Of a DNA stretch of 64,000 nucleotides, positions 3,717-55,500 are shown piece after piece (positions within the stretch are counted from its first letter, which is position 1; the number at the start of each line of letters is the position of its first letter). The notes under the pieces are model-generated. The model searched no databases. It saw nothing but the letters and a program-made list of their open reading frames with translations, and was not told the origin of the DNA. This DNA comes from an uncultured beta proteobacterium. Its GTDB lineage: Bacteria > Pseudomonadota > Gammaproteobacteria > Burkholderiales > SG8-41. The translations under genes were made by a program, and so were the position numbers. The stretch is from the NCBI GenBank assembly GCA_903905655.1, contig CAIVHG010000060.1, positions 7,034-71,033 of the forward strand, read 5' to 3'.

Positions 3717-4487
3717 TCAGGGCAAGTTCAGGGCTTTGCGTATCGAGATAAGTTTCGCATGCGCAGCTTGATCCTCTGACGCTTCCATCAGGTTGGAAAT
3801 CTTGTCGGTCCCATACAAATGCCCATTGGTGTATGTGCTTACGCTGTCCTGAATGCGGCGCGGATATTGCGGGACATGGGCTTCATCTTTGATGAATACC
3901 GCTATGAAGTCATTCCAGATATCGGCTTTTCTGTTTCCTATGAATGATTCCAACAGTGCAACTGGATAACCGCTTCTCTTGCCCCAGTTTTGCAGAGCGA
4001 TTCCGCTGTCTGGGTAGAATCTCCAGCAATCTGCGGGATATCTGTGAAACGCCCCATTGGAAGGGGAGTTTATGTACAGGAGCCCTGCCGGCTTCAATAT
4101 TCTCAGCGTTTCATTGAACAGTAGCCAGAAGAACTCTGAATGCTCGAAGCACGATGAGCTCACTACCACATCGATGGTCTCGCTATCGAATGGCAATAAA
4201 TAGGGATTCGCGATAACGACATCAACGCCTTTGCCGGCAACGAAATCGAGGCCGAGGTAACTATTATTTGCGGGGGCCACGGATCTAAGGCTGCCCCTGA
4301 CATCTTTGGAGCCCACATCGACGATGGTCAATCCGGCGGAGTCCTTGAGGTATGTATCAAAGAAAGCTGCCGCATACTGCATAGCCGTGTCGTGCATTGT
4401 TAAAACGCCCCCTGCACCGAATTGGGCCGCCTCAAAACCGCTTTGGGCAGTCTGCCGTGATGTTACCGGCTTTGCAACAATAGTCAA
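3717..4487 (-). CDS. class I SAM-dependent methyltransferase (Methyltransf_11-like)
   Basis: The sequence LTIVDVGSKDVRG...YLGLDFVAGKGVDVV...ETIDVVVSSSCFEHSEFFWLLFNETLRILKPAGLLYINSP carries motif I (VDVGS) and post-I/II motifs. The start is either TTG at 4487 or ATG at 4397. The gene is visibly lower in GC than its surroundings. Confidence 0.75.
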   Translation of the reverse strand: MTIVAKPVTSRQTAQSGFEAAQFGAGGVLTMHDTAMQYAAAFFDTYLKDSAGLTIVDVGSKDVRGSLRSVAPANNSYLGLDFVAGKGVDVVIANPYLLPFDSETIDVVVSSSCFEHSEFFWLLFNETLRILKPAGLLYINSPSNGAFHRYPADCWRFYPDSGIALQNWGKRSGYPVALLESFIGNRKADIWNDFIAVFIKDEAHVPQYPRRIQDSVSTYTNGHLYGTDKISNLMEASEDQAAHAKLISIRKALNLP

Positions 4488-4552
4488 AGCCGTCGCTCGT
4501 TGATAGAATTTCGGCAGGTGCTGCCAAAAACGTGAATAAGAGGATTCATTTC

Positions 4553-5503
4553 ATGATCAAGACGTTTAAGGTCGTATTGCTGTGCTGCTTCGCCGCATTC
4601 GTTTCCGTCCCCGCGCACGCACAGCCGCTCAAGACGCTGCAGGTGAACGTGTTTCGCGAGGACCCCGGCCTGACGATCGGGCGGGTCAAGGGTTTCTTCG
4701 CGGCCGAGGGGTTGAACGTCAACGTGGTGCGCACCTCCAACTCCACCGACCAGATGTTCGGCCTGTCGAACGGCAGCTTTCAACTGGTTTCCACCGCGTT
4801 CGACAACGTGCTGGCGTGGTCGGGGCGCGAGGGCGCGGACCTGATCGCGGTGGCGGCGATCGGCGACAGCCAGGTGTTCAAGGTGTACGTGCGCCCCGAG
4901 ATCAAGACCTGGAGTGATTTGCGCGGAAAGAAGCTCGCGGTCGATGCGGTCAACACTGCCTATGCGCTGGTGCTGCGCCGCGTGTTGCTGGAGCAGGGGC
5001 TGGACCTGGCCAAGGGCGACTACGAGCTGCTGGCGCTGGGCAATGGAAATCTGCGCCTGCAGTCGATGCTCAAGGGCGAGACCTCTGCCGGAATCCTCAC
5101 GCCGCCTGATGATCAGCGCGCGCTCGACCAGGGCCTGGTGCTCATGGGAGATTCGGGCAAGGCGCTGCCGGACTTCCCCAACATCCTGTTCGCCGTCAAT
5201 CGCACCTGGGCAGAGAATGAGCGTTGGCAGCTCGTCGGATTTCTGCGCGCATGGGTCGCCGCGGGGCGCTGGATGCGCGCCAACGACGCCGAGGCAGCAC
5301 GCATCGTCGAAGCCGAGCTCAAGGTGGATACAAAGATTGCAAGGGGCTACATGATTGACCTGAGCCGCACCGGCGCGCTTATTCCCGCGGGGCTGGAGCG
5401 GGCGCTGAAGCTGCGCACGGGATTTGGGCTGACCCCGCCGATGGGGCCTGAGATCTCCAATTACTACGACCTGAAGTACTACAACGCAGCGACTGCCAGG
5501 TGA
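4553..5503 (+). CDS. periplasmic ABC-type substrate-binding protein, NMT1/THI5 (SsuA/TauA-like) fold; orphan
   Basis: Track ORF 4532..5503. I prefer the ATG at 4553, preceded by AAGAGGA. It has a signal peptide (MIKTFKVVLLCCFAAFVSVPAHA). GFFAAEGLNVNVV and LRGKKLAVDAVNTAYALVLRRVL resemble nitrate/sulfonate/bicarbonate-family binding proteins. No permease or ATPase gene is adjacent. Confidence 0.7.
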   Translation: MIKTFKVVLLCCFAAFVSVPAHAQPLKTLQVNVFREDPGLTIGRVKGFFAAEGLNVNVVRTSNSTDQMFGLSNGSFQLVSTAFDNVLAWSGREGADLIAVAAIGDSQVFKVYVRPEIKTWSDLRGKKLAVDAVNTAYALVLRRVLLEQGLDLAKGDYELLALGNGNLRLQSMLKGETSAGILTPPDDQRALDQGLVLMGDSGKALPDFPNILFAVNRTWAENERWQLVGFLRAWVAAGRWMRANDAEAARIVEAELKVDTKIARGYMIDLSRTGALIPAGLERALKLRTGFGLTPPMGPEISNYYDLKYYNAATAR

Positions 5504-7260: not shown

Positions 7261-8304
7261 ATGCTGATCCTCAACAACGCTGAAGTCACAAAACTGATCG
7301 ACATGCGCGAGTGCATCGCCGCGCTCGAAGACGCTTATCGCGAGCTGGCGCACGGCCGCTCGGTGAGCGCGGTGAACTCGGATGCCATCACTCCGGGATG
7401 CCTGCACGACACCATTTATCAGTTCAAGCTCAACGGCGGCGTGATTCCCAACGTGGGCATCGCGGCGCTGCGGCTCGATTCCGACATTATCAAGCGCGAG
7501 CCGCGCCGCCAGGTGAAGCTGGCGCTCGCGCCGGGCGGACGCTACACCGGGCTCATCATGTTGTTCAGCACCGAGACCAGCGAGCCGCTGGCGATTTTTC
7601 CCGACGGCATCGTGAATCCCATGCGCGTCGCCGCGGCCTCCGCGCTCGGCGCCAAATATCTGGCCCGCCCCGATTCGCACACGGTCGCGCTGATCGGCGC
7701 CGGCTGGCAGGCGCGCTCGCAGGTGATGGCGATCGTGGCGACGCACGAGGTGCGGGTGATCCGCTGCTACAGCCCGACGGCCGAGCGGCGCGACGCCTTC
7801 TGCCGCGAGATGCAGCATTTGACCGGCGTGAAGATGGAATCGTGCGATAGCGCCGAGCGCGCGGTGAGCGGCGCGGACATCGTGCTGTGCGCCACCAACA
7901 CCAACGAAACGTTGTTCTTCGCGCGCTGGCTCAAGCCCGGCATGCACGTCGGCACCATCCGCGGCGCGGAGCTCGAGCCGGCGGCGGTGATGCAGGCCGA
8001 TGTGCTCGCGGTGCACGAGCGCAAGCTGAGCGGCGCTTCCGCGGTTGCCAAGAGCGTGGTGCTCGCCAAGGACCGCATGGCGATCCCCGGAGTCGACATC
8101 GAGCGCCTGCCGACCCTGCCCGAGATCATCGCCGGCATGGTGCCCGGCCGCACCACGCCGCAACAGATCAGCTGCTTTCTCAACCTGCGCGGCATCGGGC
8201 TGCAGTTCGCGGCGGTCGGCGCCGTGATCTACCGCAAGGCACTCGCCAAAGGAATTGGGCGCGAGCTGCCCACCGAATGGTTTACCGAGGACGAGGTGTC
8301 CTGA
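7261..8304 (+). CDS. ornithine cyclodeaminase / mu-crystallin family protein
   Basis: Track ORF 7183..8304. I prefer the ATG at 7261 (MLILNNAEVTKLIDMRECIAALEDAYREL). It has a Rossmann motif (VALIGAGWQARSQV) and the typical CATNT segment. Confidence 0.85.
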   Translation: MLILNNAEVTKLIDMRECIAALEDAYRELAHGRSVSAVNSDAITPGCLHDTIYQFKLNGGVIPNVGIAALRLDSDIIKREPRRQVKLALAPGGRYTGLIMLFSTETSEPLAIFPDGIVNPMRVAAASALGAKYLARPDSHTVALIGAGWQARSQVMAIVATHEVRVIRCYSPTAERRDAFCREMQHLTGVKMESCDSAERAVSGADIVLCATNTNETLFFARWLKPGMHVGTIRGAELEPAAVMQADVLAVHERKLSGASAVAKSVVLAKDRMAIPGVDIERLPTLPEIIAGMVPGRTTPQQISCFLNLRGIGLQFAAVGAVIYRKALAKGIGRELPTEWFTEDEVS

Positions 8305-31039: not shown

Positions 31040-32002
31040 TCACTCTTCGTGGATGCCCGCATCCTTGATCACCTTGCCCATCCTGACCATCTCGGATTTC
31101 ATCAGGGCGCCGAATTCCGCCGGCGAGTTGCCCACGCCCTCGACCCCTGATTTGAACAGGCGTTCCTTGATGGCTGGCTTGTTCAGGTGCGCGACGATCG
31201 CCTTGTTCAACTGGTCGATGATCGCTGGCGGGGTCTGGGCCGGGGCATATACGCCCGAGGGCGCTGACGCTTCGTAGCCGGGCACACCCGAAGCCGCGAC
31301 CGTAGGAACACCGGGTGCGAATGCGGACGGCTTCGCGCTGGTCACCGCCAGCGCCCGCAATCTGCCGGAATTTACGTGCGGCATCGCGGTCGCGGCATTG
31401 GGAAACGACAACTGCACGGCGCCGGCAATCAGATCATTGAGTGCCGGCGCCGTGCCTTTGTACGGAACGCGCATGATATTGACGCCGGCCATCGCCTTGA
31501 ATAATTCGGCAGCGAGATGAATCGCCGAGCCTGCGCCCGCAGAAGAATAGTTGAGTTCTCCCGGCCGCGCCTTCGCGATGGTGATCAGTTCCTTGACGCT
31601 GTTGATCTGCGTGGACGGGTGGACGACGAGAATGTTGGGGGCGCTTGTCGCCATCGTGATCGCTGCGAAATCTCTGATCGGATCATAGGGCACGTCGGCG
31701 CGCATCAGCGGCAACAGCCAGACCGTGCTGCCATAGACCAATATCGTATATCCATCCGGCTTCGACTTCGCCACGGTCTCAGGCGGGATGACCCCGCTGG
31801 GCCGGTTTTCTATGACCACCTGCTGGCCCAGCGCGCTGGTGATTCCCTCGCCAACGAGGCGTGCCACGAAATCGGCGCCGCCTCCCACTTCGGCGCTCAC
31901 GATTCGAATCGGCCGGTTTGGATAGTTCTGACCCCATGCTGCTCCTGTGGCCAGAAGCGCGGTGGCGATCAACGACGTGCATACGACGAGGCGCGGCAGC
32001 AT
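31040..32002 (-). CDS. Bug/TctC family periplasmic substrate-binding protein
   Basis: There is an AAGGAG SD. It has a signal peptide followed by QNYPNRPIRIVSAEVGGGADF. PDGYT and VPYKGTAPALNDLIAG are present. Confidence 0.9.
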   Translation of the reverse strand: MLPRLVVCTSLIATALLATGAAWGQNYPNRPIRIVSAEVGGGADFVARLVGEGITSALGQQVVIENRPSGVIPPETVAKSKPDGYTILVYGSTVWLLPLMRADVPYDPIRDFAAITMATSAPNILVVHPSTQINSVKELITIAKARPGELNYSSAGAGSAIHLAAELFKAMAGVNIMRVPYKGTAPALNDLIAGAVQLSFPNAATAMPHVNSGRLRALAVTSAKPSAFAPGVPTVAASGVPGYEASAPSGVYAPAQTPPAIIDQLNKAIVAHLNKPAIKERLFKSGVEGVGNSPAEFGALMKSEMVRMGKVIKDAGIHEE

Positions 32003-32068
32003 GATGAGTCTCCTTTGTTTGCGAAAATTACTTCCACAGCACGGCAGAGCGGTAAAAGCCCTGCCTGG

Positions 32069-33043
32069 TCATTGCTCCAGCTTGATGTTGCCGGCCTTGA
32101 TGACTTTGGCCAGGATGGTCGTGTCCGATTTCATCAGCGCAGCGAACTTGTCAGGTGTGGAGACCAGGGGCGCCATGCCCAGCCCGTCGAGCGTTTGCCT
32201 GAAGTCGGGCAGCGCCAGCATTTTTGCGATGTCGGCCGACAGCTTGTCGATGACTTCTCTGGGAGTGGCGACCGGCACGAAGACTCCGAACCAGGTTTTC
32301 AAATCAAACGCCGGCAGCCCGGCCTCGCTGAAGGTGGGCAACTGGGGCAGCGCCGGAAAGCGGCTGCCACCGGTGATGGCGAGCGCCCTGAGTTTCCCGG
32401 TCTTGATATGGGGGGCGAGCGTGATCGGGGTGTTGAAGTGCAGCTGCACGTGGCCGCCGATGAGGTCGATGATGGCTGGACCCCCTCCCTTGTAGGGAAC
32501 GTGCTGCATCCTGATCCCGGCGAGGAGTTCAAATGACGCAGTCGCAAGATGACTCGGGCTCCCGGCGCCCGATGACGCGTAATTGATCTGTCCGGGCCTG
32601 GCTTTGGCCAGCGCAATGAACTGCCGCAGGTTGTAGGCCGGTAGCGAAGGATGGATCACCAGAATGTTCTCGCTGATCGCAAGCGTGGCGACGGGCCCGA
32701 AGTCCTTGAGCGCGTCATAAGGAGTGGGAATGAGCAGCGGGGTGATGACATGGGCGCTTGAGGTCAGCATCAGCGTATAGCCATCAGGCGGGGATTTGAT
32801 CAGGGCTTCGGAGCCGATGATGGTGTTGCCGCCGGGCCGGTTGTCGATGAGCACCTGCTGGCCCCAGATTTCGGTGAGCTTCTGGCTGACGAGGCGTGCG
32901 ACTACGTCGTTGGAGCCGCCTGGAGGGAAGGGCACGATGACGCGCACCTGCCTGGCAGGATACGCTTGCTGGGCGGCGGCATGGCCCGTGGCAAAAACCG
33001 CAAGCATGCCTGCGGCCAGTAATCGCAACACTCGTTCGATCAA
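32069..33043 (-). CDS. Bug/TctC family periplasmic substrate-binding protein
   Basis: Track ORF 32069..33112. I prefer the TTG at 33043, preceded by GAGGGGGG, which gives a normal signal peptide (..RVLRLLAAGMLAVFATGHAAAQ). QAYPARQVRVIVPFPPGGSND follows. Confidence 0.85.
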   Translation of the reverse strand: MIERVLRLLAAGMLAVFATGHAAAQQAYPARQVRVIVPFPPGGSNDVVARLVSQKLTEIWGQQVLIDNRPGGNTIIGSEALIKSPPDGYTLMLTSSAHVITPLLIPTPYDALKDFGPVATLAISENILVIHPSLPAYNLRQFIALAKARPGQINYASSGAGSPSHLATASFELLAGIRMQHVPYKGGGPAIIDLIGGHVQLHFNTPITLAPHIKTGKLRALAITGGSRFPALPQLPTFSEAGLPAFDLKTWFGVFVPVATPREVIDKLSADIAKMLALPDFRQTLDGLGMAPLVSTPDKFAALMKSDTTILAKVIKAGNIKLEQ

Positions 33044-33312
33044 GGGACCCCCCTCAGCGTAGAGACCAAAGACGCCCGCGATAGAAAGCCGGTACATGGG
33101 TAAGAAAATCACCCAAGCACTTCATCGCATCCATGTTTAGTTTTCGAGGAGCCCGCGCACGCTCCCTCATCCGATCCGCGCCGCTGGCGCACTACGCAAC
33201 GGGCGCTGCGATTATGCGGTTCCCTGGCGCGTCAAGTCAAACACGGGGCGCATTGCCCGGGGGCGCTTTCTGAGGATCAGGGCTGGAGATGATCCCGGTA
33301 TGAGCTCCCCGG

Positions 33313-47191: not shown

Positions 47192-48157
47192 CTAATTAGC
47201 GCGTATGCCGGCGTCCTTGATCACCTTGCCCCAGCGTACCATGTTCGCTTTGATGGAGGCGCTGAGTTCTGCAGACGAGCTGCCGACCACGTCGGCGCCC
47301 GCGACGAAAAACTTCTGCTTGATCTCGGGCTGGTTCAGCACCTTGACGATGTCTGCGTTCAATCGGGCGATGAGCTTGGCGTCGGTCCTGGCCGGCGCAA
47401 ATGCAGCGATCTCAGTGCCCGACTCGTAACCGGGCAGCGTTTCCGCTACCGTAGGCAGGCTCGGCGCAAGCTCGGTGCGTTTCGCGGAGGTCACGGCCAG
47501 CGCCTTCAGGCGGCCCGTCTTGACCAGTGATGACACCGAACTCGCGAATGCGAACATCAGATGCACGCGGCCGCTGACCAGATCGTTATAGGCCGGCGTG
47601 GCGCCCTTGTAGGGGATGTGCACGATCTTGGTGCCGGTCATGGCCAGAAATAATTCTGCGGCCAGGTGGTTCGATGCGCCGGTCGCGCCTTCCGCATAAT
47701 TCAGTTCGCCCGGCTTGGACTTGGCCAGAGCGATCAGGTCCTTGACCGAACTAACGGGCAGCGCAGGATAGACGACGAGTATATTCGGCGCCGTCGTCAG
47801 CAGCGTGATATGCGCGAAATCCTTCATCGGGTCGTAGCGCACCTCGCTGCCGAGGAACGGCAGCAGCCAGATGCTGCTGCTATAGATCATCAGCGTATAG
47901 CCATCCGGATTCGCCCTGGCCAGCGTTTCACCTGCAATCAGGCCGCCCCCGCCACCGCGATTCTCCACCACGACCGACTGCTTCCAGAGATCCGCAAGGC
48001 CCTGTGAGACGACGCGCGCCGTGAAGTCTACGCCGCCTGCCGGATCTGCGGTCAACACCCGCACCGGCTTGATCGGATAATTCTGGCTGTACGCTGCGCC
48101 TGCAGCGAGTGCGATCGTGCAAACCGCAAGCAATCCCGGTAGACCCTTCTGCGCCAT
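47192..48157 (-). CDS. Bug/TctC family periplasmic substrate-binding protein
   Basis: It has a signal peptide followed by QNYPIKPVRVLTADPAGGVDF. PDGYT and IPYKGATPAYNDLVSGR are present. Confidence 0.9.
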   Translation of the reverse strand: MAQKGLPGLLAVCTIALAAGAAYSQNYPIKPVRVLTADPAGGVDFTARVVSQGLADLWKQSVVVENRGGGGGLIAGETLARANPDGYTLMIYSSSIWLLPFLGSEVRYDPMKDFAHITLLTTAPNILVVYPALPVSSVKDLIALAKSKPGELNYAEGATGASNHLAAELFLAMTGTKIVHIPYKGATPAYNDLVSGRVHLMFAFASSVSSLVKTGRLKALAVTSAKRTELAPSLPTVAETLPGYESGTEIAAFAPARTDAKLIARLNADIVKVLNQPEIKQKFFVAGADVVGSSSAELSASIKANMVRWGKVIKDAGIRAN

Positions 48158-52107: not shown

Positions 52108-52896
52108 TCACTGTGGTTTGAAGAGTGGAGCGAAGTCCTTATCCATGGTCAACAGGTGGTGGGAAACGACGTTGACTGTGAAATCCATGAGGTCGCCCAA
52201 CGTCGACAGGCCGAGTTGAGCGCTGGCATGGAGGGCGTCTCCTTTGATAAGTATCTCGCTGTGGGCGGCCTTATGCGCCTTGAGGCGTGCATAGTGGTGC
52301 TGTTCGAGGAGCGCCTCTTCGTGGGCGAAGTGCAGCTTGATGTGCACGAGCAGGTCATTGAAAGCGGCGTGGAACGCATCCCGATTTGCTGGCGTCCCAA
52401 AGGATGCGTCCATCACTGCGTTGGCGAGCGCGTAGAGTTCTTTGTGCTCGCCATCGATGACGGCATTTCCGCACTCATTGGGGCTGTCCCAGATGAGATG
52501 CAGATTGTTTTGGTTCGCTTCTATCTCCCATTGGCCGGTGACGCCGCTGGCGCGGTGATCGATGTCAGCTTTGTTGACGAGGTGTTTCAAAGACTGCTCG
52601 GCGCTGGCCTGGTGCAGCGATTCGTCGAAGCGGTGACGGGGATTGAGGCGTCGTTCGACGAACCCAGAGTCGGGTACTGCATTCGCGGCTGGATGAGCGG
52701 CTTGATCGGGGTGCGGGACGATTGGGTCAGTGCTCTTGGGGGCCGTGCTTTGCGCGGGGGTGTCGCTGCCGCGATAGCGGCATCCTACACAGGCGGTGAC
52801 GGTGCGACGCAGTCCCGACCAATGCGTTTTCACCTGTGCCGTGTATTCGGCATAGGTGAGCCGGCAATGGTGACATTCCAGGACCAGCTTTGCCAT
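52108..52896 (-). CDS. fusion protein: N-terminal 4-Cys zinc-ribbon-like segment, linker, and C-terminal hemerythrin-like metal-binding domain
   Basis: The N-terminus has ECHHC...(22 aa)...CVGC. The C-terminus has WDSPNECGNAVIDGEHKELYALANAV...HIKLHFAHEEALLEQHHYARLKAHKAAHSEIL...VVSHHLLTMDKDF, which is the bacteriohemerythrin H/E/D ligand pattern. Confidence 0.7.
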   Translation of the reverse strand: MAKLVLECHHCRLTYAEYTAQVKTHWSGLRRTVTACVGCRYRGSDTPAQSTAPKSTDPIVPHPDQAAHPAANAVPDSGFVERRLNPRHRFDESLHQASAEQSLKHLVNKADIDHRASGVTGQWEIEANQNNLHLIWDSPNECGNAVIDGEHKELYALANAVMDASFGTPANRDAFHAAFNDLLVHIKLHFAHEEALLEQHHYARLKAHKAAHSEILIKGDALHASAQLGLSTLGDLMDFTVNVVSHHLLTMDKDFAPLFKPQ

Positions 52897-53131: not shown

Positions 53132-54340
53132 TTACTTTGGCAACTCGAGCATCACTGCACGCGGCACCAGCGAGTTTTGGCACAGCCTCTGCAGCGATGC
53201 GTCCGTGCTGGCGAGGCAATCCTTATGCAGCGCAAGAAACGCGCGGCCGCCTGCGGTCTCGTGCCAGAACCAGCGCTGGATCCCGCTGGCGTCCGGTGCG
53301 CCGGGGCGCGCTGCGGCCGCTTCGTAGTAATAGGTGCGTATGTCTTCACACATAAGCTTAAGCGTTTCGCCTGCGCTGAGATTGTCGATGCTGTCGACCT
53401 TGTGCTCGCGCAGAAAGCGCGTGATCTGATCTGCGGCTGCGGCGACGGTCAGCTTGCTCAGGCCAACCATGCTGCGGCCGCGGCGCTCGATTGCGCGCTC
53501 GTGCCAGGGCCGCAGCTCTTCGACTTCGCGCACGAACGCAGTGCCAATGTCCTCGTTCTTCGCGGCTGCGAAGCTTGCCGGACAGGCGGCGCCCTGCATA
53601 TCATCCGGCGTCGCCGGCGCATCCTCAGGATAATCTGCAAGCACCGGACCCGACGGTGCATCGAGCAGCTTCAGTGCGGCAAGCAGCACGCGCTCCTGAA
53701 ACGCGGCATCGTTCGGCACGCCGAACGGGCGCCCCAGCATGAACGGTACCCAGAGTGCGCGCGGCGGGTTGATCGCCGCCGTGTGCTCGCGGATTAACGA
53801 TATCTGCGTGGTCGCCACACCGGAGGCCTCGATGTAATGCGCTAGTGCGCCGACGGCGCACGTGCAGTTTGGTCATATCGGGGTCAGCAGCACCGCATCG
53901 ACGTGGTCGCCTTTGAGCAGCGCTGCCATTTCGCGCGCCTTCGCCTCGAGCTGGCGGATCTGCGTTGCGCCCATGAACGAATAGTGCAGGTCAGCCACCG
54001 ATCCGATGACTTTGCGCTGCGCTAGCTCGTTAAGGCGGTCGATCGGAAACGCGACGTTGTAATCTTCCTGAAATCCGGTGCGGTCAAAATTGACCGATTG
54101 GTGGCTCATCACGAGCTCTGAGGCCTTGGTGTCGCCCGGAATAATCCGATAGTCAGTGGCGCTGGGGCCGAACGGGCGATCGGTCTTTCGGTGCACGCCG
54201 GCGGTGGTGACGATCGCGACGCGGCATTGCGCAAGCGGCGGCGGCTGGACCCATGGCCGGCCGTCGAAGCCGCCGAGCTCCTTTATCTTATCGAGCTTGT
54301 TCTTGCGGTCCCACTCCGGCAAATCAGCCAATCGAACCAT
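53132..54340 (-). CDS. GrdB/PrdB-family (glycine/sarcosine/betaine/D-proline reductase selenoprotein B-like) protein with an in-frame TGA read as selenocysteine (402 aa, U at codon 156)
   Basis: Track ORFs 53873..54340 and 53132..53818 are in the same frame, and the only stop between them is the TGA at 53873..53875. The continuous translation is ...KGDHVDAVLLTPI-U-PNCTCAVGALAHYIEASGVATTQISLIREHTAAINPPRALWVPFMLGRPFGVPND... The N-terminal part (RVAIVTTAGVH...DYRIIPGD...LVMSHQSVNFDRTGFQEDYNVAFPIDRL) matches my recollection of the GRDB family. A SECIS-like hairpin follows the TGA. Confidence 0.7.
53845..53861 (-). promoter_or_regulatory. candidate bacterial SECIS stem-loop
   Basis: The mRNA reads UGA-CCAAACUGCAC(11 nt)-GUGCGCC-GUC-GGCGCAC. 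This is a perfect 7-bp stem (17 nt in total) with G-U in the apical loop, starting exactly 11 nt after the UGA. That is comparable to the minimal E. coli fdhF SECIS geometry. Confidence 0.5.
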
Positions 54341-54388
54341 TTTCGATCGTCCTTATTATCTTGTACTGCTGATGGGTAAACAGCGCTC

Positions 54389-55255
54389 TCAGCGGATCTC
54401 GCGATGCACGAACTCGATGATCTTTTCGATCGCCGCCTTGGCCTGGGGTGAGTCCGGATGTAGGGGGATGAAAGTCTGGCCCATGCCCTCGAACCAGTGC
54501 AGCTCCACAAGGCCGCCGGCCTTGCGATAGGCTTCGACGAAGCGTTCGAGATGGGGGCGCGGATGCGCGCTGTCGTTGGTTCCCTGTAGGTAGAGTACCG
54601 GCGGCATCTGCACGGATTCGCCGCGTTCGAGCGCGCGCGTGGGATTGCCCTCGGCCATCGCCGCTTCGTCACCCCAATAGCTGATGTGGTCCGGTCCTAC
54701 CGATTCGAAAAGCCTTGAATTTCCCTCCGCCTTGAGCTTTTGCGCATGTTGATAGCGGCCCAGCGGATCGATCACCGGCCAGCACAGCACTGCGCAGCGC
54801 ACCGTGGCATCGACCGCTGCGGGTTCGGGTAATGCGATGGCTGCGTAGCGCGGATCGGCGGGGCGCATCGCGGCCAGCATGGCCTGGTGGCCGCCGCTCG
54901 AAAATCCGATGATGCCGACCAGGTCGGGGCGGCTGTTGAACTTTGCCGCATTTGCCTTGAACCAGCGGATCGCGTAATTGATATCGACGAGGGAAGCGGG
55001 ATATCCCGCATCGGGCGGCATGCGGAAATCGGGCGATACGACCACCACGCCGCTTTTTGCCAGCGGCACCTCGGTGTGTGTATTGGCGGTGCGGTCCTTC
55101 CTGCACCAGGCGCCGCCATGCAAGGCGATCATCAGAGGGTAAGGACCGTCGCCGCGCGGCCTGGATACGCGCGCGAGCAGGGGCTTGCCGCCATGGCGCA
55201 GGAATTCCACGTCGGAGACTTCGATTTCGTGGTTCGACAAGCTGGAACTCGTCAT
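54389..55255 (-). CDS. alpha/beta hydrolase fold-3 (HSL-type carboxylesterase/lipase) protein
   Basis: Track ORF 54389..55438. I prefer the ATG at 55255, preceded by GAGGAG. It has the HGGAW oxyanion motif and the GFSSGG nucleophile elbow. Its stop lies 48 nt upstream of the GrdB-like start on the same strand. Confidence 0.8.
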   Translation of the reverse strand: MTSSSLSNHEIEVSDVEFLRHGGKPLLARVSRPRGDGPYPLMIALHGGAWCRKDRTANTHTEVPLAKSGVVVVSPDFRMPPDAGYPASLVDINYAIRWFKANAAKFNSRPDLVGIIGFSSGGHQAMLAAMRPADPRYAAIALPEPAAVDATVRCAVLCWPVIDPLGRYQHAQKLKAEGNSRLFESVGPDHISYWGDEAAMAEGNPTRALERGESVQMPPVLYLQGTNDSAHPRPHLERFVEAYRKAGGLVELHWFEGMGQTFIPLHPDSPQAKAAIEKIIEFVHREIR

Positions 55256-55500
55256 GCCTTGCTCCTCTGAGGATGCGCTGAAAATTAGCTCCGCATTGTG
55301 CCCTATGCGAGCGCATCGGCGCAACCCGCACAGAGAGTGCAATCGCAGAGCGGTGCGCGCCGCGCCGCCATTGCCTGGCGGGGGCCATGGTAAGATCATC
55401 TCTTGTCGATTTGCGCGTGCGTCCATAGGAGCGCGCATGAGGCACCCGGACTGCGCCGGGTAGCTGTCCCGCGCGGGCTATACACGGACAGAGATCCAAC

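Follow-up and report, generated by a model that had tools for sequence, protein, structure and literature searches.

The 64,000-nt stretch of DNA analysed here (the window), from contig CAIVHG010000060.1 of an uncultured betaproteobacterium, carries on its minus strand, at 54340..53132, a segment that translates to 402 codons followed by a TAA stop, and the sole in-frame stop inside this segment is a TGA at 53875..53873, codon 156. Two open reading frames (ORFs) are listed there, 53873..54340 (155 aa) and 53132..53818 (228 aa, GTG start), and the original prediction had taken them for the two halves of one probable selenocysteine-containing protein related to GrdB and PrdB. They do lie in one common frame with only the TGA between them, as it had said (the strand, which it left unstated, is the minus), and the seamless junction that it described is also borne out: the joined translation reads ...DAVLLTPI*PNCTCAVGALAHYIEASG at this point, and the PrdB profile discussed below runs across it. 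The two adjacent ORFs are almost certainly one 402-residue gene whose internal TGA encodes selenocysteine (Sec), and the best explanation of the locus as a whole, in which we have high confidence, is a single selenoprotein gene of the GRDB (PrdB/GrdB-like) superfamily at 54340..53132. The features of the gene itself are the following.

53132..54340, minus strand: predicted complete selenoprotein gene (155 aa + Sec156 + 246 aa, TAA stop), from translation, tblastn and dN/dS
54350..54354, minus strand: Shine-Dalgarno-like AAGGA, 9 nt before the ATG, read off the sequence
54340..54338, minus strand: start codon ATG, from translation
53873..53875, minus strand: in-frame UGA, codon 156, predicted to be read as selenocysteine, from the TGA of orthologues, the Cys of homologues and near-identical strains
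53845..53861, minus strand: hairpin GUGCGCC-GUC-GGCGCAC of the selenocysteine insertion sequence (SECIS) type, with a 7-bp stem and a GUC loop at 53854..53852, starting 11 nt after the UGA

The N-termini of homologues share the start MVRL[ASTI][DE]L with this protein. TGA ends other genes of the window in the normal way, namely two complete TctC genes and the hydrolase gene lying upstream, and a reassigned genetic code is therefore excluded.

Conservation of the UGA and the hairpin behind it

A scan of GTDB with one genome per species gave 278 relatives, and the best 80 loci among these, one per genome assembly, were kept. Their hosts are metagenome-assembled genomes (MAGs) of Burkholderiales, other Beta-, many Alpha-, Gamma- and Deltaproteobacteria and Myxococcota, with many of the recovered loci belonging to MAGs of marine Alphaproteobacteria, and the tblastn matches in the 80 genomes span query residues 1 to ~400 in one frame. 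The codon at the site is TGA, with the frame continuing, in 79 of these 80 loci. The single exception, L071, has CGA (Arg) at 1264-1266 and an intact hairpin; this codon is one base off TGA, and it may represent a sequencing error or an inactivated copy. Of the 76 full-length translations, 72 have Sec at position 156, three have Cys and one has Arg. Tandem paralogues ~1.2 kb apart are present in eight loci (L020, L021, L022, L032, L042, L047, L052 and L054), both copies having the in-frame TGA and a SECIS-like hairpin.

The protein search brought in 1227 relatives; the close ones are mostly 222-256-aa fragments that start just past the same site, and a minority are full-length, at 371-436 aa. 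In all nine of the full-length homologues that were aligned, a Cys stands opposite the TGA, within TPVCPNCT, with no gap or protein end at the site; the original prediction had looked for Cys or Sec at this position. In the DNA of four Cys-form loci (L083-L086) the codon there is TGT or TGC.

The hairpin is present as first described, a perfect 7-bp stem of 17 nt in all, at 53861..53845, 11 nt past the UGA. Taken from this single sequence it is weak evidence, suggestive only, and its significance comes from the comparative data. In the 64 kb, each strand has 56 positions at which a perfect 7-bp hairpin with a loop of 3-8 nt starts, and only 7 of the 892 minus-strand TGA triplets of the window are followed by one that starts 8-16 nt downstream. 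For the comparison, the 54 nt from the TGA were aligned, free of gaps, in 87 copies, 81 of them distinct. Over the distinct sequences 89.9% of the cells of the 7-bp stem are paired, as against 29-58% once the 3' side is shifted by 1-3 columns, and double-sided changes occupy 38 cells as against 9.8 in shuffles. Pair 16-30 is CG in 52 sequences, UA in 17, GC in 3 and AU in 2, while pair 15-31 is GC in 54 and CG in 10. The compensatory pairs link a synonymous third position to a first position that determines the amino acid; the third base of Ala codon 10, for one, tracks the first base of codon 6 (T-A in 17, C-G in 35). The entropy of four-fold synonymous sites is 0.28-0.45 bit in the stem as against 1.3-2.0 bit in the loop or outside the stem, and the loop itself reads C-G-[U/G]-N-[G/A/U], with the G invariant. 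The Cys-form genes keep 3-6 of the 7 stem pairs, and their proteins are without the A-V-G-A peptide that the hairpin encodes, though with four Cys-form DNAs this is a modest control. With the hairpin written into that peptide, the gene shows cleanly how an RNA signal can constrain the sequence of a protein.

The bacterial SECIS (bSECIS) consensus, as quoted in PMC13188914, has a loop of 3-9 nt, a stem of 4-16 bp and 16-37 nt from the UGA to the loop; a G and then G or U open the loop, in the pattern N1-G-[G|U]-N-N2, and the minimum free energy is at most -7.5 kcal/mol. The hairpin of the window agrees with this in its 7-bp stem, its 18 nt from UGA to loop, its -15.1 kcal/mol and the GU at the start of its loop, which is 3 nt long, or 5 nt with the closing C-G opened. 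A geometry like that of the E. coli fdhF SECIS had also been claimed, and when the 54 nt from Sec codon 140 of fdhF were folded in the same register, the fdhF upper stem-loop fell in identical columns, nt 15-31 from the U of the UGA, with an 11-nt spacer and a 17-nt element in both and with G then U in both apical loops. The two are not alike in every respect: fdhF has a bulged U, a GGUC loop and a longer lower helix, whereas the hairpin of the window has seven perfect base pairs, a GUC loop (C-GUC-G) and no conserved lower helix.

In translation, UGA codon 156 would be recoded to selenocysteine, as the comparative data and the established bacterial mechanism suggest, with the hairpin 11 nt past it, G-C-rich in its stem, acting as the putative bacterial SECIS that brings SelB-GTP-Sec-tRNA(Sec) to the ribosome. 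The recoded product would contain the peptide ...GDHVDAVLLTPI-U-PNCTCAVGALAHYIEASGVATTQISLIR across codon 156.

Read-through of the UGA without selenocysteine, by near-cognate Trp or Cys decoding or by way of a SelB-independent hairpin, in a host without Sec machinery, is highly unlikely. Downstream hairpins can stimulate read-through generally, and a tblastn search with the E. coli proteins SelA, SelB and SelD detected none of their genes within the 64-kb window of the source contig, both of which would suit such a reading; the site, however, lines up with a catalytic Cys and with the Sec known from proteins of the PrdB/GrdB family, the hairpin agrees with the bSECIS consensus of SelB type, with an invariant G and then U or G in the loop, and selA and selB adjoin the orthologue in two genomes. 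The latter are Gammaproteobacteria MAGs, L029 and L058, with selA and selB 2-5 kb from the orthologue (Pfam SelA E 1.8e-154; SelB domains); selB and selA are divergent there and lie upstream of it, within 1091-7677 of L029 (Pfam-confirmed) and within 1741-11194 of L058. A selD-like gene is located 2.5 kb upstream of the orthologue in L030 (6582-7475). ARAGORN detected no tRNA-Sec in 60 loci and, in the window, no tRNA of any kind; Rfam did not confirm as tRNA-Sec the 98-nt 'tRNA-???', with its oddly called anticodon, that ARAGORN placed at 816-913 of L030 (minus strand). Rfam, at its gathering thresholds, matched no family, any tRNA-Sec or SECIS model of its own included, in the whole window or in L029, L030 and L058. 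With its UGA read as selenocysteine, the gene makes its source organism a likely user of selenocysteine.

The TGA and the hairpin are unchanged in two contigs at 99.8-99.9% nucleotide identity and in one at 88.7%, so that close strains with another sense codon at the site, which would have spoken for a recent mutation, were not encountered. Measured against the 88.7%-identical relative, codons 1-155 have a ratio of nonsynonymous to synonymous substitution (dN/dS) of 0.118, and codons 157-402 one of 0.125. The TGA being kept in close relatives and the dN/dS values being similar, two genes, a recent nonsense mutation and an assembly error are therefore taken to be excluded. Two genuine genes, with the TGA ending a 155-aa GRDB-fragment protein and a 228-aa protein starting at GTG 53818, are what public gene callers annotate at the locus and its orthologues (a 155-aa PF07355 product and a 228-aa 'hypothetical protein'); this arrangement is even less probable than read-through, for the 18 codons from the TGA to the supposed GTG start show same-frame protein conservation in all 80 genomes, with a dN/dS of 0.16 against the same relative, the PrdB profile is continuous across the TGA from aa 35 to 226, and the Cys-containing homologues are single proteins of 371-436 aa. 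A pseudogene, or a sequencing or assembly error, in which TGC or TGT has recently become TGA, has a negligible probability: the change takes a single base, and the CGA of L071 shows that point changes occur at the site, but the TGA is found in 79 of 80 species-representative genomes of several classes and in independent assemblies of near-identical strains, purifying selection is equal on its two sides and the hairpin behind it is co-conserved.

Recoding of the UGA to selenocysteine would be the reason why the gene comes out of ordinary gene callers in two pieces, a GRDB fragment of 155 aa and a 'hypothetical protein' of 228 aa. A correct annotation would show one selenoprotein gene in place of the two fragments, with codon 156 entered as a translation exception, and hundreds of 'hypothetical protein' fragments in MAGs call for the same merge. 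Public annotation (NCBI, JGI; matches P0001-P0120) consistently splits the Sec forms in the way that had been foreseen, into a GRDB fragment of 155 aa and a 'hypothetical protein' of 222-256 aa. One public fragment is named 'YoaH (UPF0181 family)', and the selenoprotein-B family name is given only to Cys forms.

Domains, active site and known relatives

For the profile searches the joined protein was used with Cys at codon 156. Two domains and two further cysteine codons are distinguished.

53663..54238, minus strand: PrdB/GRDB-like domain, aa 35-226, spanning the UGA (NCBIfam TIGR04483, Pfam PF07355)
53864..53866, minus strand: codon of Cys159, the putative resolving Cys of U-P-x-C-T, 100% conserved in the 76 full-length translations
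53135..53662, minus strand: family-specific C-terminal domain, aa 227-402, mostly helical (profile searches, conservation, secondary structure of the AF2 model)
53584..53582, minus strand: codon of Cys253, in a Cys253-Pro254 that is invariant in the 76 full-length translations

The match to the NCBIfam PrdB profile TIGR04483 (E 4.6e-31; positions 26-218 of its 238) runs unbroken from aa 35 to aa 226, over the TGA. The Pfam GRDB profile PF07355 matches aa 36-153 only (E 7.8e-10; 39 bits, above the gathering score of 22), and aa 153 falls at profile position 345 of 347, the profile ending immediately before the TGA. For residues 227-402 neither Pfam nor NCBIfam gave a significant match, the only hit being DUF2164, below its threshold (E 0.005; 17.3 bits against 27). 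The assignment of both halves to a single GRDB domain thus stands for the first ~70 residues of the second ORF, which complete the PrdB-like domain, but not for the rest of it, which is family-specific. Similarly, of the UxxCxC motif noted at the junction, the U and Cys159 are conserved but the third residue named, Cys161, is replaced by Arg in 64% of orthologues, and the conserved motif is U-P-x-C-T. The AlphaFold2 (AF2) model, for which the joined sequence was given with X at position 156, is Rossmann-like alpha/beta in its N-terminal part and helical in its C-terminal part, at a moderate pLDDT of 73. A sequence search of the PDB gave no match at E up to 1.

Homology with the B subunits of D-proline and glycine reductases suggests that Sec156 is the nucleophile of the U-P-x-C-T redox centre. 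By analogy, Cys159 would resolve the intermediate as a selenenylsulfide, and the invariant Cys253 of the C-terminal domain may relay electrons from a thiol reductant; these putative roles of the three residues draw in part on thiol/selenol redox centres in general.

The substrate of D-proline reductase is bound to the pyruvoyl group of PrdA, where its alpha-carbon is attacked by the PrdB Sec, and PrdC, an electron-transfer protein, regenerates the complex (PMC11229817, PMC13188914); in the C. difficile PrdB this Sec is residue 151 (PMC11229817). PrdB (Clostridioides difficile / Acetoanaerobium sticklandii, TIGR04483) is the best-scoring characterised family for the protein described here, with Sec in UxxC at a comparable position (156 here, U151 in C. 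difficile) and a SECIS directly downstream of the UGA in both. The present protein differs in being 402 rather than ~240 aa long, through an extra 175-aa C-terminal domain with the invariant Cys253, in lacking PrdA (the pyruvoyl proprotein), PrdC and PrdH as neighbours within the window, and in its hosts, which are Proteobacteria and Myxococcota MAGs and not Stickland-fermenting clostridia. With GrdB, GrdF and GrdH (PF07355, TIGR01917/TIGR01918) it has in common the GRDB match above the gathering score and the Sec-x-x-Cys centre, and Cys-form relatives (P0065) are called 'glycine/sarcosine/betaine reductase selenoprotein B family protein' by NCBI. Unlike in that group, with its full-length ~435-aa architecture of two halves, only profile positions 223-345 of 347, the C-terminal half, are represented here, the ~220-aa N-terminal half of GrdB being absent; the GrdB motif is UxxCxxC, as against UxxCxC here with a variable last Cys, and no grdA, grdE or grdC lies nearby.

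Several results weigh against the reading as a GRDB-superfamily selenoprotein, or against carrying the enzymology of the characterised members over to it. The PrdB score of 108.1 bits is below the trusted cut-off of 300, and so are those for GrdB (37.8 against 602), GrdF (46.7 against 800), GrdH (52.4 against 775) and the selenoprotein-B subfamily TIGR01918 (various_sel_PB; 46 against 65.45) with respect to their own cut-offs. Clustering of the ORFs within 7 kb in the 80 loci gave no conserved partner like PrdA, GrdE or GrdA, and a Foldseek search of the AF2 model against the PDB gave no match below E 1e-3. As for the selenocysteine, the 59-nt hairpin segment folds no better than dinucleotide shuffles (z = 0.23, in a window of 62% G+C), and the case for Sec incorporation in this long-form subfamily is a comparative one. 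The protein is not a member of the characterised PrdB, GrdB, GrdF or GrdH equivalogs, because it is below their cut-offs, has a different architecture and is without their partner subunits; with scores below the cut-offs and no partner gene, its enzymology is therefore proposed by analogy only. The probable selenocysteine-containing GrdB/PrdB-like protein of the original prediction is supported by the TGA of 79 of the 80 loci and by the covariation of the hairpin, with the reservation that it scores below the true PrdB and GrdB cut-offs.

The gene fits the 'proline reductase PrdB' family of the marine surveys, known since 2005, to which it is matched by the descriptors of motif, domain and host range, and it would operate as bacterial selenoprotein genes in general do. 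In those surveys (Zhang, Fomenko & Gladyshev 2005; Zhang & Gladyshev 2008) the family is characterized by pfam07355 and UxxC; 42 Sec and 1 Cys forms were counted in the Sargasso Sea, where it was the third most abundant family, and 235 Sec and 110 Cys forms in the Global Ocean Sampling (GOS) data, and it is listed among the most widespread bacterial selenoprotein families. Here, too, pfam07355 and UxxC are found (U156-P-N-C159) and Sec forms far outnumber Cys forms, and just as the survey family comes from metagenomes of surface-water bacteria, many of the present loci are from marine Alphaproteobacteria. The member described here, by contrast, is from a Burkholderiales-like betaproteobacterium, and its gene context gives no support to the clostridial proline reductase function assigned to the family in the surveys. 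Few selenoproteins are more frequent in ocean metagenomes than this family, whose hosts include marine Alphaproteobacteria of surface waters, with a presumably aerobic lifestyle. Literature searches on the function of the long-form family returned catalogue entries only. The selenoprotein call is routine for specialists; the main interest lies in the role of a long-form PrdB-like protein without a pyruvoyl partner.

Gene neighbourhood and possible function

The neighbour families that do recur, TauD and hydantoinase, are each present in at most ~20% of the 80 loci. A TauD/TfdA dioxygenase gene is located directly downstream in ~15 Sec-form loci, and it begins ~90-150 nt past the gene in L028, L039, L040, L041, L049, L050, L060, L064, L065 and L074. 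The Cys-form loci L083 and L084 also have TauD/TfdA directly downstream (4281-5132 and 7306-8160, respectively), and in L085, another Cys form, it is nearby on the opposite strand; the Pfam lists of the four Cys-form loci contain no Gly_reductase or GRDA family. Hydantoinase/oxoprolinase A and B are found in marine alphaproteobacterial loci. Around the gene in L040 there are four TauD paralogues together with hydantoinase/oxoprolinase A and B, an FAD oxidoreductase and an AMP-binding enzyme. A Peptidase_M19 dipeptidase and DUF5943 pair, which we take to be a companion of dimethylglycine catabolism genes in Pseudomonas, lies between selA and the PrdB-like gene in L029.

With no pyruvoyl partner and with variable catabolic neighbourhoods (TauD-type dioxygenases, hydantoinase/oxoprolinase, dipeptidase-DUF5943), the substrate of this GRDB-superfamily selenoprotein is therefore probably not D-proline. 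A more far-reaching proposal, which we make tentatively and which is more doubtful than probable, is that the long-form (~400 aa) proteobacterial PrdB-like protein is a self-contained selenoenzyme with a new substrate, not a subunit of a proline or glycine reductase; what points in this direction is the fusion of the U-P-x-C-T centre to a helical domain with an invariant Cys-Pro, the lack of a pyruvoyl partner, the recurring TauD and hydantoinase neighbours and, beside selA and selB in two genomes, the dipeptidase-DUF5943 pair. The enzyme could possibly cleave a C-N or C-S bond reductively when betaine-like or sulfonated osmolytes are broken down aerobically. The label 'proline reductase' would in that case be a misnomer for one of the most abundant marine selenoprotein families.

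In the window the neighbours of the gene are an alpha/beta hydrolase, a hemerythrin, a MetE-like protein and a GGDEF protein, the first of these lying immediately upstream.

54389..55258, minus strand: alpha/beta-hydrolase gene (Abhydrolase_3 / BD-FAE), co-directional, with its TGA stop 48 nt before the selenoprotein start

In the near-identical contigs, too, a gene occupies this upstream position. The hydrolase gene is not conserved as a neighbour across the family, and it may be an operon partner in this lineage only. Downstream, at 52108-52896 on the minus strand, is a hemerythrin-domain gene, and the order of 155-aa fragment, 228-aa fragment and 262-aa hemerythrin is repeated in near-identical metagenome contigs. 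In L002 (6406-7374, minus strand) and six other Burkholderiales loci a radical SAM and DUF3641 protein is encoded ~3.5 kb upstream; it is presumably of the ArsS / rSAM_SeCys type, a family in which some members are themselves selenoproteins.

A second in-frame TGA that was considered as a candidate, at 32069..32071, is an ordinary stop between two complete TctC genes. These are the two same-frame ORFs, of 347 and 320 aa, at 31040-33112 on the minus strand, both of them complete genes for solute-binding proteins of the TctC/Bug family. A third TctC gene is located at 47192-48157, and the abundance of TctC fits a Burkholderiales-type genome.

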